A stretch of DNA of 64,000 bases from an uncultured Gammaproteobacteria bacterium. Its GTDB lineage: Bacteria > Pseudomonadota > Gammaproteobacteria > JABDGN01. A program made the position numbers. This document shows positions 45,001-48,000 of the stretch, piece by piece (the stretch's first letter is position 1; each line of letters begins with the position of its first letter). Where the stretch lies: positions 307,870 to 371,869 of the forward strand of contig CAXBIY010000001.1 of NCBI GenBank assembly GCA_963975985.1, in the 5' to 3' direction.

Positions 45001-48000
45001 TATCATATGAGTTGTTGGGATAATGAAATCAACTCAGCCAATTTTTCTTGAGCTTTTCTTTGTTCAATAGTTTGTTTAGCTAAGGCGATGCCTTGTTCTA
45101 GATTGTTCGTGATATTAGCCGCATATAATGCAGCGCCACTATTTAATATAACGATATCGCGTGCGGCACCAGGTTGATCGTCAAATACTTGATGGATAAT
45201 AGCTAAACTTTGCTGGGCATCATCGATGACGAGTGAATCTAAGGACTGACGTTCTAAACCAAATTGTTCGGGGGTGATGGTGTATTCCGTTATGTCACCG
45301 TCATTGAGTTCGCAAACAAAGGTGGGTGCTGCAATGGAGATTTCATCCATACCATCCTCAGAATGTACGATCAATGCGTGTTGACTGCCCAATTGTTTTA
45401 ACACTTCAGCAAATGGTTGGCATAAGGCTTTATCATAAACCCCAATTAAATGATGGGTGGCGCCAGAAGGGTTCGTCAATGGACCCAATAAATTAAAGAT
45501 AGTGCGAGTGCCCATTTGCTTGCGAGCCTTCATGACATGTTTCATGGCACCATGATGTTTGGGGGCGAAGATAAAACCAATGTTAATTTGCTCAATCAGT
45601 TGAGCGATTTGCTCGGCATTTAAATCTAAGTTAACACCGGCGGCATCTAATACATCAGCGCTGCCTGATTTGCTAGAGAATGAACGGTTGCCGTGTTTCG
45701 CTACGATGCCACCACTAGCGGCCACTACGATAGCCGTGGCAGTGGAAATGTTAAAGGTATTTAAGCCATCACCACCGGTGCCGACGATATCAACTAAACT
45801 AGGTTTGTTGACCTTTACGCCAGTCGCGAATGATCGCATGACTTGAGCAGCCGCTGTGATTTCAGTGATGGTTTCGCCTTTTTCCTTTAAGGCATTAAGC
45901 GCTGCAATAATATCGTCGTCCGACATATCACCCGACATCATTGCTGTCATCAGGTCGGTCATTTCATCGTGATTTAAATCGTGAGTTATCTTATGCATCA
46001 TTTAAAAAGTTCTGTAAAAGGGTTTTACCTTCGGGTGTCATAATCGATTCGGGATGGAACTGTACGCCTTCAATCGCTAAATCTTTATGGCGCACGCCCA
46101 TGATTTCTTCTCTGCTACCATCTTCATTTTCTGTCCAAGCAGTGACATCTAAGCAGTCGGGTAGGGTGTTTTGATCGATCACTAATGAATGATAACGTGT
46201 GACTTGCATTGGATTAGGCAAACCTTTAAAAACACCGACATTATTATGCTTCACCATCGAAGTTTTACCATGCATAACTTTACCGGCATGCACAATATCT
46301 CCGCCATACACTTGACCAATGGCTTGATGTCCTAAGCAAACACCAAGAATGGGTAGTTTGCCTGCAAAATGTTTAATGACATCCATCGAAATGCCCGCTT
46401 CGTTAGGCGTGCAAGGCCCAGGTGAAATCACAATCCTGCTCGGCTGCAAGGCTTCAATTTCAGCGATGGTGACTTCATCATTGCGAAACACATCAATGTC
46501 ACTACCCAATTCAGCTAGGTATTGCACTAAGTTATAAGTGAAAGAATCGTAATTATCAATGACGATTAACATATTTTTTCTCTAGAAATTGATCAAAAGC
46601 GTATTTATGAATAACGCTGGATAACAATGTTTGATAAGGAATGCCTTCTTCCATGGCCTTTACCTGAATGGCATTAAAGTCGCGCGTGGTAATGCGTAAA
46701 TTAACACGCTTATCTTTGTTGCGAGTTGCATGAGCAATAGCTTCAATGCGTTTTTTTTCTTCTTTAAAATTGTCGACAGTTTCCCATTCTCCATTGTCAA
46801 TGGAGTTCATTAATTCTTGCTCTTCATTGGAGAGTTCTAGCTTATTTTTCATCTTGATCACCTAGTAGGGCTTTTGTTGCTTTTCTATTGGGGATAATAA
46901 TTTTCATAAAAATTTCATTTTCAGTCTCCACGCAGGGGACGACATAAATGTAGTTATTAAATTCTATATAATAAAGTTCTTGTCCTGGATAGCGTTCCTG
47001 GTTTGAATGTTTTTGTTTGTCTAATAAACAACCACTTTCAATTGCAAATGACATTTGCTCAAAACTGATACCGCGTTGCTGTTTAAGCAGCTCGTTTTTT
47101 TCTTGGTTCCAGTTAAAAGTTTTCACCTTAGCTCCTTATCATTATTATAATAGCACAATGTGTGCGTTTTGTCATTATCTTGCTAGTTGATTGATTTAAT
47201 TAAAGATTAAAAACCTTTTTCGATCATGTTAATGGCTTTGAAAATAGCGCGGCCTTTGTTTAGGGTTTCTTGCCATTCGGATTCCGGATCAGAATCGGCA
47301 ACGATACCAGCGCCGACTTGGTTGTAAAGCACTTTGTTTTTAATCACGGCGGTGCGAATGGCAATCGCCATATCCATGGTGTCATCCCAGCCCCAGTAGC
47401 CGACAGCGCCGCCGTAAATGCCACGTTTTACATTTTCAACTTCATCGATAATTTCCATCGCACGCACTTTAGGTGCACCACTTAAAGTGCCAGCCGGTAG
47501 AGCAGAGGCGAGAATATCAATGGCGGATAAATCAGGTTTAATTTTGCCTTCGACATGAGAGACGATGTGCATAACATGTGAATAGCGCTCAATGGCCATT
47601 TGATCGGTGACCTTTACGGTGCCGGTTTCACTGACGCGACCGACATCGTTGCGTGCTAAATCAATCAGCATTAAATGTTCAGCAATTTCTTTCGGATCGG
47701 CGAGTAAATCTTGTTCTAAAGCTTTATCTTCTTTTGCCGTTTTGCCACGTGGGCGTGTACCCGCTAAAGGACGAATGCTAATAGTGTCGTCTTCAACGCG
47801 GACTAAAATTTCAGGTGAGGCGCCAACAATATGAAAATCGTTTAAATTAAAATAATACATATACGGTGATGGATTAATGGTGCGAATCGCACGGTACAAT
47901 TCAAACGGCGGATGATCAAACGGCAAGCTTAAACGTTGTGAAGGCACCACTTGCATGCAATCACCATCAACCGTGTATTGTTTGATTTTTTCAACGCAGC

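Follow-up and report, generated by a model that had tools for sequence, protein, structure and literature searches.

What is a toxin-antitoxin (TA) pair doing between two genes of a tryptophan operon, and does it have anything to do with tryptophan? The question is raised by a stretch of 64,000 nucleotides (nt), the whole of which is referred to here as the window (GenBank assembly GCA_963975985.1, contig CAXBIY010000001.1, positions 307,870 to 371,869). The host is an uncultured marine bacterium of the Gammaproteobacteria in which a TA pair with its own promoter is lodged between trpE and trpG. The gene order rpe-trpE-toxin-antitoxin-trpG-trpD-trpC on the minus strand had been proposed in a first interpretation made without database searches (the sequence-only reading), and the list of open reading frames (ORFs), the sequence itself and the Pfam and NCBIfam assignments place the ORFs where that reading had put them. 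Its description of a toxin-first type II pair, with a toxin of the DUF497/BrnT superfamily and a ribbon-helix-helix (RHH) antitoxin, is likewise supported by Pfam, by the predicted fold and by the conserved pairing of the two genes. The pair is probably a mobile type II TA cassette of horizontal origin whose insertion hit the trpE-trpG junction exactly, and not a regulator of tryptophan synthesis.

The insertion is delimited by comparison with the closest relative (L092; TrpE 69% identical), in which rpe, trpE, trpG and trpD are contiguous and the TA pair is absent. The junction in this relative reads GGTTTTTAA-A-ATGTTAGTC, that is, the TAA of trpE, one nucleotide and the ATG of trpG. In the window, the flanks GGTTTTTAA and ATGTTAATC enclose 634 nt absent from the relative, and the inserted cassette thus extends on the minus strand over 46573-47206, from the stop codon of trpE (TAA, 47209-47207) to the ATG of trpG. 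The GC content of the cassette is 34.2%, against a window mean of 43.1%, which places it in the lowest 0.5% of all 634-nt segments of the 64 kb. The junction is also contiguous in a second relative (L093, 63%). The host lineage is isolated, since in a search of 5.8 billion proteins the nearest TrpE was 69% identical and the next about 63%. A scan of genome contigs based on TrpG, whose closest match among those listed has 76% identity, is a broad survey and not one of close relatives. Among the matches listed, 59 loci have trpE upstream of trpG, two of them being copies of the window itself. The median trpE-trpG gap at the surveyed junctions is about 30 nt among these matches, and 17 of the 57 other junctions listed have gaps of 187 nt to 5.8 kb with unrelated genes. 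This TA pair was found at none of these 57 proteobacterial junctions among the matches listed, nor in L092, so that the pair is not ubiquitous at the site. Tailocin clusters of Pseudomonas sit at the same junction (PMC4684702) and, together with the 17 long gaps, they indicate that the trpE-trpG site tolerates foreign DNA. The literature search returned no publication that places a TA pair between these two genes.

An assembly artefact can be dismissed, since DNA identical at 100% over 12.2 kb and 9.8 kb occurs in two independent assemblies of metagenomes, of which one derives from Tara Oceans, and the exact proteins are also recorded in NCBI and Logan assemblies, on contigs of up to 396 kb. 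The existence of homologues (reaching E = 1e-27 for the toxin and numbering 177 for the antitoxin) and the identical DNA in independent assemblies also show that the toxin and antitoxin ORFs are real genes and not chance ORFs.

A particular feature of the insertion is the contact between the antitoxin gene and trpG (45991-46572, minus strand; Pfam GATase, E = 2e-63), which encodes the glutamine amidotransferase of anthranilate synthase. The two genes overlap by exactly 17 nt (46556-46572), as the sequence-only reading had stated, and both the location between trpE and trpG and the overlap with the true trpG start were confirmed by the sequence and by TrpG alignment. The antitoxin frame runs ...AAA AAA TAT GTT AAT CGT CAT TGA and the trpG frame ATG TTA ATC GTC ATT GAT, so that trpG DNA (minus strand) supplies the end of the antitoxin, (Y)VNRH, and its TGA stop codon. 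The cassette therefore has no stop codon of its own, and trpG initiation lies inside the antitoxin ORF, 14 nt ahead of the antitoxin stop. The start of trpG is secure, because TrpG aligns from residue 1 with the TrpG of at least 80 genomes, the closest relative's protein being likewise of 193 amino acids (aa), and because trpG has no alternative start codon ahead of its conserved motif. Upstream of it, the sequence is A-rich and unstructured (RNA fold z = 0.04), with a weak Shine-Dalgarno-like AGAG at 46583-46580. Most homologous antitoxins stop about 3-5 residues earlier, and the C-terminal extension of the window antitoxin falls in a tail that the model predicts to be disordered. A true overlap of the antitoxin with a downstream gene occurs in none of the 54 distinct homologous loci with enough downstream sequence. 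The single apparent case, a 4-nt overlap in L133, is spurious, the downstream ORF having been over-extended to a TTG start.

The toxin gene (46842-47126, minus strand) encodes 94 aa and begins with a GTG (47126) placed 5 nt after a Shine-Dalgarno sequence AAGGAG (47132-47137), both of which had been recognized in the sequence-only reading. The only Pfam family matched by the protein is BrnT_toxin (PF04365), with 25.0 bits, E = 2.3e-5 and coverage of profile positions 1-75 of 77, the gathering cut-off of the family being 34.5 bits. NCBIfam gave no match for the toxin or the antitoxin, and phmmer searches of both against the PDB sequences returned chance matches only. The closest homologues of the toxin are about 60% identical and are annotated as DUF497 by their sources; PF04365 is the best family for 29/29 aligned toxins of the subfamily, with a best E-value of 2.5e-7. 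The subfamily is large, since its profile finds 3153 clusters (at 50% identity) with E <= 1e-3 among 1.84 billion representatives. A subfamily profile (A2) aligns over its full length, residues 4-86 on 4-86, with chain A of 7VD7 (7vd7_A), a TA complex of Salmonella Typhimurium, at E = 0.0069, and the aligned stretch of this chain scores 84 bits on PF04365. The AF2 model of the toxin (pLDDT 93) has a predicted RelE/YafQ-type fold, with N-terminal helices packed on an antiparallel beta-sheet, and its best PDB match is again 7vd7_A (TM-score 0.56). The window toxin is only 15% identical to this chain and differs from it at the canonical K-H-G, which in the alignment corresponds to Q17-R18-G19, R18 being invariant in the subfamily. 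All the invariant residues of the subfamily (20/20) are kept, and the alignment shows that the W6-N7-x-x-K10 motif is kept as well. According to PMC5086665 and PMC13284704, which supplied the BrnT residue data, D6, E7, K9, K16, H17, R41, R72 and E78 are important for BrnT toxicity or RNase activity, and the equivalent His matters for toxicity in both BrnT and RelS (PMC13284704). Judging by the PF04365 match below the cut-off, the profile match to 7vd7_A and the Arg in place of His, the toxin is a divergent DUF497/BrnT-like (COG2929) branch of the superfamily. The name brnT, given to it in the sequence-only reading, is thus appropriate for the superfamily, PF04365 being its best family, but not at the level of the Pfam cut-off nor at His17, which is replaced by the invariant Arg.

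The antitoxin gene has two alternative starts, GTG 46861 (101 aa) and ATG 46852 (98 aa). The latter is most likely the one used: it has a Shine-Dalgarno sequence AGGTGA (46863-46858) 5 nt upstream, it is picked by the gene callers in public assemblies, and homologues align from it. With this start the gene covers 46556-46852 (minus strand) and overlaps the toxin gene by 11 nt, instead of the 20 bp first proposed. The protein has two helices in its N-terminal region, followed by a DNA-binding domain of the RHH type at the C-terminal end. It matches CopG_antitoxin (PF12441) with 30.6 bits (E = 6.1e-7, profile positions 6-77 of 79), which passes the gathering cut-off of 28 bits, and the BrnA profile PF14384 gave no match to it at E <= 0.01. 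The label brnA has consequently been abandoned for a PF12441 antitoxin of the COG5304 type. PF12441 is present in most of the 120 homologues listed (177 found), whose sources name them "CopG family antitoxin" or RHH proteins; one of the homologues (P0343) carries both PF12441 and PF14384, so the two families are related. The CopG repressor (1b01, 2cpg) is aligned over its whole length by positions 46-87 of the antitoxin family profile (E = 0.04). In the model, helices are predicted at residues 9-19, 29-44, 56-69 and 73-86, the last two forming the RHH domain and being preceded by the strand segment KRVNLRIT, and the tail has a pLDDT of <50 and is predicted to be disordered from residue 89. The antitoxin keeps 12/12 of the invariant columns.

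The cassette brings a promoter-like site with it, located in the 80-nt gap after trpE. A consensus scan (10/12 matches, with a TG extension) identified on the minus strand a -35 box ATGACA (47170-47175), which fits the TTGaCA of the family, a 17-nt spacer and a -10 box TATTAT (47147-47152), which is extended by a preceding TGC and fits the family TAnanT. The sequence-only reading had noticed a TATAAT in this gap; a promoter is indeed found there, but its -10 box reads TATTAT with the TG extension. In the spacer, between the two boxes, lies the palindrome GCACACATTGTGC (47153-47165, minus strand), a candidate operator of the RHH antitoxin and the only site of its kind in the window. The same arrangement is a property of the family. 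The motif GCAYAC is found upstream of the toxin gene in 69/80 distinct loci and occupies a fixed place in the spacer in 55/80. These 55 loci (within L083-L176) share the promoter TTGaCA-aaAGGCACACAatgTg-TAnanT, to which the window sequence ATGACAAAACGCACACATTGTGCTATTAT conforms, and in them, as in the window, the spacer contains a GGCACAC(N)TGTGC; in a further 14/80, GGCACAC stands about 10 nt ahead of the ATG. Nearly all conserved positions of the consensus are matched by the window promoter, in spite of protein identities of only 50-60%. For a gene pair with an RHH product, a conserved palindromic box in the promoter is most plausibly the autoregulatory operator, binding being proposed on the model of BrnA and the BrnTA complex (PMC10714953, PMC5086665). 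The ATG of the toxin gene is about 6 nt past the -10 box in 55/80 distinct loci, which implies a leaderless toxin mRNA; most subfamily members therefore appear to make one. The window copy, unlike most of the family, has about 14 extra leader nucleotides with the AAGGAG and a GTG start. A 28-nt similarity between the left flank of the insert (47175-47202) and 55330-55357 was also noticed; the second site is inside the sodC coding region and the similarity was taken as chance.

The family occurs as a conserved two-gene unit in varied genomic surroundings. Toxin homologues were collected at 92 loci, drawn from 80 metagenome contigs, from three contigs of viruses and from look-ups of the exact proteins, and a PF12441-type antitoxin gene is directly 3' of the toxin gene in 87/92 of them. 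Each locus has its own, unrelated neighbouring genes, three of the loci are on viral contigs, and trp genes are near the toxin homologue in 0/92. The combination of COG2929 with COG5304/COG3514 had already been predicted as a mobile TA system by Makarova, Wolf and Koonin in 2009 (PMC2701414). Some homologous pairs appear to be integron-type cassettes (L100, positions 1-1358, and also L107, L148, L163, L169 and L110). In L100, a repeat of 72-119 nt that ends in GGCGTTAG is present three times, at spacings of 531 and 720 nt, with the pair lying between the copies, which looks like an integron-type cassette array with attC-like repeats; in many homologues a GTTAGC/GTTAGGC core is found 10-20 nt upstream of the -35 box, and in several the antitoxin stop is inside a GCTAAC inverse core. 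The corresponding signs were looked for in the window, where no attC was found, the antitoxin ORF runs straight into trpG, and the left flank has only a degenerate ACTAGC. Insertion by an integrase at a secondary site (trpG ATG|TTAATC resembling GTTRRRY) was considered and is unsupported: the left junction is TAA-TCTTTAAT and not ATG-TTRRRY, and there is no attC before trpG.

Several known systems help to place the pair. In Brucella abortus, BrnT/BrnA (3U97; PF04365 and PF14384) is, like the window pair, a toxin-first operon of two overlapping genes, with a small toxin of RelE-like topology that shares the N-terminal W-(D/N)-x-x-K motif, and an antitoxin whose C-terminal RHH domain represses, in Brucella, its own promoter (PMC5086665, PMC10714953). 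The differences are at K16-H17 of Brucella, to which Q17-R18 correspond here, and in the family assignments, with the PF04365 score of 25 vs 34.5 bits and an antitoxin of PF12441 and not of PF14384. By analogy, the window pair appears to work like BrnTA as a divergent member of the DUF497/RHH superfamily. The COG2929 and COG5304/COG3514 system has the same composition as the window pair, its antitoxin having a C-terminal RHH domain and its DUF497 toxin being by prediction a derived RelE-like interferase, and is widespread and horizontally mobile, including phages and plasmids (PMC2701414); that work is a family-level prediction and is silent on insertions in trp operons and on the conserved promoter and operator. 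The TA cassettes of sedentary chromosomal integrons, such as that of Vibrio cholerae, are also compact pairs with their own promoter (PMC13108822), a likeness extended by the repeats and upstream cores of the homologues described above. The window copy differs from them in lacking attC and a nearby integrase gene, in being stranded in a housekeeping operon, and in having junctions that misfit a simple integrase recombination at G/TT. Finally, the R/F pyocin and tailocin insertions of Pseudomonas (PMC4684702) demonstrate that the same trpE-trpG site takes foreign DNA in other Gammaproteobacteria. These and the other surveyed insertions are large clusters or unrelated genes that separate trpE from trpGDC, whereas the insert of the window has 634 nt and is fused to trpG by an overlap of frames.

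If the cassette is what it seems to be, its working can be outlined as follows. The antitoxin, or the TA complex, would bind GCACACATTGTGC and repress the cassette promoter, and the toxin would act as an RNase-type translation inhibitor neutralised by the N-terminal part of the antitoxin. Transcription from rpe-trpE would read through the cassette into trpGDC and leave the operon unbroken, while the internal autoregulated promoter would additionally feed trpGDC. The former translational coupling from trpE to trpG would have been replaced by a coupling from the antitoxin gene to trpG. The pair would persist as a selfish, addictive element, at a site from which it could not be lost imprecisely without harm to trpE or trpG. 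Several points weigh against this account. The PF04365 match of the toxin is below the cut-off, the Brucella BrnT structure (3U97) is outside the top 50 Foldseek matches of the toxin, and the RNase mechanism is less certain because Arg18 stands for the His that matters for BrnT/RelS toxicity. Changes at near-invariant positions, L62V, T76I and Y87L in the toxin and G87D in the antitoxin, might reflect relaxed selection. The repressor complex on the promoter might partly block the polymerase coming from trpE, and it is by inference that toxicity and its neutralisation, binding at the operator, and read-through are attributed to the cassette. The host lineage is thinly sampled; how old the insertion is, and what the junction was like before it, are judged from one relative and a broad survey.

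The same observations may be explained in other ways. The cassette might have been recruited as a regulator, with its promoter and the antitoxin-trpG overlap making trpGDC follow TA autoregulation, for example by derepression upon antitoxin degradation under stress or starvation. An intact promoter with its candidate operator upstream of trpGDC and no terminator-like site between them would fit this explanation, as would the lost stop codon and the 17-nt overlap with trpG, a fusion present in 0/54 family loci, and the Shine-Dalgarno leader that the toxin gene has gained, unlike most of its family. We nevertheless consider it unlikely: none of the 92 family loci is near trp genes, the nearest relative lacks the cassette, unrelated DNA is accepted at the junction in many taxa, any insertion lacking a terminator would passively give the same architecture, and with a single carrier lineage selection for the arrangement cannot be shown. 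The stronger form of this idea, that of a domesticated cassette on whose TA state the synthesis of TrpG, TrpD and TrpC depends through the promoter and the translational overlap, is quite doubtful. The unusual regulatory entanglement described in the sequence-only reading was in this respect an over-reading, as the junction often holds inserted genes and nothing ties the toxin to tryptophan. A coupling of trpGDC to TA autoregulation is a possible consequence of the architecture, and given a family distribution that has no link to tryptophan it is to be seen as a possible by-product and not as a shown function.

The pair could also be a decaying, inactive remnant, its ORFs being still open only because it was inserted recently. 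The near-invariant changes mentioned above, the disappearance of the antitoxin's own stop codon and the score of the toxin under the Pfam cut-off would all agree with decay. They are to be set against full-length ORFs with 20/20 and 12/12 invariant residues kept, a promoter that matches the family consensus almost throughout, good Shine-Dalgarno sequences for both genes, a confident toxin model and the fact that the C-terminal extension of the antitoxin is confined to a tail predicted to be disordered, which together make decay rather improbable. Even less credence can be given to the remaining explanation, according to which the insertion ends the rpe-trpE transcript and trpGDC is driven only by the cassette promoter. 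It is true that trpE and trpGDC are far apart in many Pseudomonas genomes (survey, among the matches listed; PMC4684702) and that a repressor at the candidate operator could block the polymerase. However, no terminator-like site (a hairpin with a U-run) was found on the minus strand from 47206 to 46556, that is, in the 80-nt gap or the cassette; the fold of the gap is that of shuffled sequence (z = -0.01), both junctions are no better (z about 0), and a tightly autorepressed promoter, as in typical TA pairs, would give little trpGDC mRNA. The splitting of the operon in two, which the sequence-only reading had offered as one of its options, is thus unlikely in view of the lack of terminator-like sites and of stable RNA structure between trpE and trpG. 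The operon is probably not split, because the cassette has neither a terminator-like site nor a stop codon of its own. Searches of the whole window with Rfam at gathering thresholds gave zero matches, and hence no trp leader, T-box or riboswitch.

The preferred explanation remains that of a selfish, horizontally acquired TA cassette, which is an ordinary insertion in an unusually tight position. TA pairs beside unrelated genes or co-transcribed with them, mobile TA cassettes that bear promoters, and insertions between trpE and trpG are all already known. In Staphylococcus aureus, mazEF is upstream of rsbUVW-sigB and transcripts from the TA promoter run into these unrelated downstream genes; the pair belongs to other families, has no ORF overlap and is not within a biosynthetic operon. 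What is distinctive in the window is the precision of the insertion (1-nt spacer) and the fusion to trpG via the lost stop codon, and a TA specialist would not be much surprised by these findings. As a natural case, the locus shows clearly how a selfish TA cassette can be lodged in a tightly packed biosynthetic operon that is probably left unbroken: the cassette has given up its own terminator and stop codon and is fused to the next gene. If the promoter and the candidate operator are active, trpGDC would have a stress-responsive input and the locus would be a test case for mobile promoters that rewire metabolism. If the cassette were domesticated, trpGDC output would be high upon antitoxin degradation or a perturbation of translation and low under repression by the complex; an RNase-type toxin switch would then be linked to tryptophan biosynthesis, and trpGDC would be uncoupled from trpE. 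Beyond the locus itself, a promoter with the GGCACAC box is conserved in the DUF497/PF12441 subfamily, which is large (about 3150 clusters at 50% identity) and uncharacterised, and the toxin mRNA of most members, apparently leaderless, suggests how toxin-first pairs may hold toxin translation below antitoxin translation.

The remaining genes of the block are conventional, the order rpe-trpE-trpG-trpD-trpC being common in proteobacteria (survey, among the matches listed). The first gene of this tightly packed block, on the minus strand throughout, is rpe (48697-49368), which encodes ribulose-phosphate 3-epimerase (Pfam Ribul_P_3_epim, E = 1e-90) and is separated by 14 nt from trpE (47207-48682), encoding anthranilate synthase component I (Pfam; TIGR00564, 568 bits against a cut-off of 517.7). 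Beyond the cassette, trpD (45003-46001; Pfam Glycos_transf_3) overlaps trpG by 11 nt, and trpC (44195-44989; Pfam IGPS), 13 nt past trpD, closes the block. The whole rpe-trpC block is bracketed by REP-like palindromic elements, none of which is inside it, an arrangement that speaks for read-through: two copies upstream of rpe (49403-49518; repeat family D2) mark its upstream edge, and one element downstream of trpC (44090-44142; repeat families D2 and I5) its downstream edge. The palindrome, GTAGGGTGGATAAAA...ATATCCACCA, has at least 8 copies in the window, in both orientations (19115-19226, 22549-22592, 25622-25665, 30566-30609, 43472-43584, 44090-44142 and 49403-49518). The copies are intergenic, those at 30566 and 44090 overlapping the ends of listed ORFs, and the element yields spurious ORFs with peptides such as FYPPYKK. 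Near the trp block, an ORF of 668 aa (51746-53752, plus strand), called as a gene in public assemblies, and one of 127 aa (42417-42800, minus strand) have no Pfam match.

No tRNA genes were found, and PADLOC gave no defence-system match. A second TA pair is present at 18162-18795 (plus strand), in another low-GC island of about 34% GC; its toxin is Gp49/HigB-like (18162-18485; PF05973) and its antidote is an HTH protein of the HI1420 type (18478-18795; PF21716). The pair is directly downstream of clpV, which belongs to a type VI secretion system (T6SS) cluster, and beside a REP-like element. The part of the cluster at 9143-18038 (plus strand) comprises TssG, VgrG, two ORFs of about 230 aa with no Pfam match, and ClpV (15315-18038). 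VgrG (10208-13339) has 1043 aa and a C-terminal DUF2515 domain, and the GC content falls sharply within its ORF, being about 0.58 at 10-12 kb and about 0.36 at 12.85-13.3 kb, which suggests that the effector tail was recently swapped. A heptamer-like repeat, GGATTAAG / GGATTGAG, forms short runs at 7273-7339 and 26244-26392 that are mutually inverted (families D6 and I12-I18). Two tandem paralogues of about 790-800 aa are encoded at 55538-57898 and 58028-60439 (plus strand), with stretches of DNA 70-85% identical, and one of them has a weak match to an inverse-autotransporter beta-domain.

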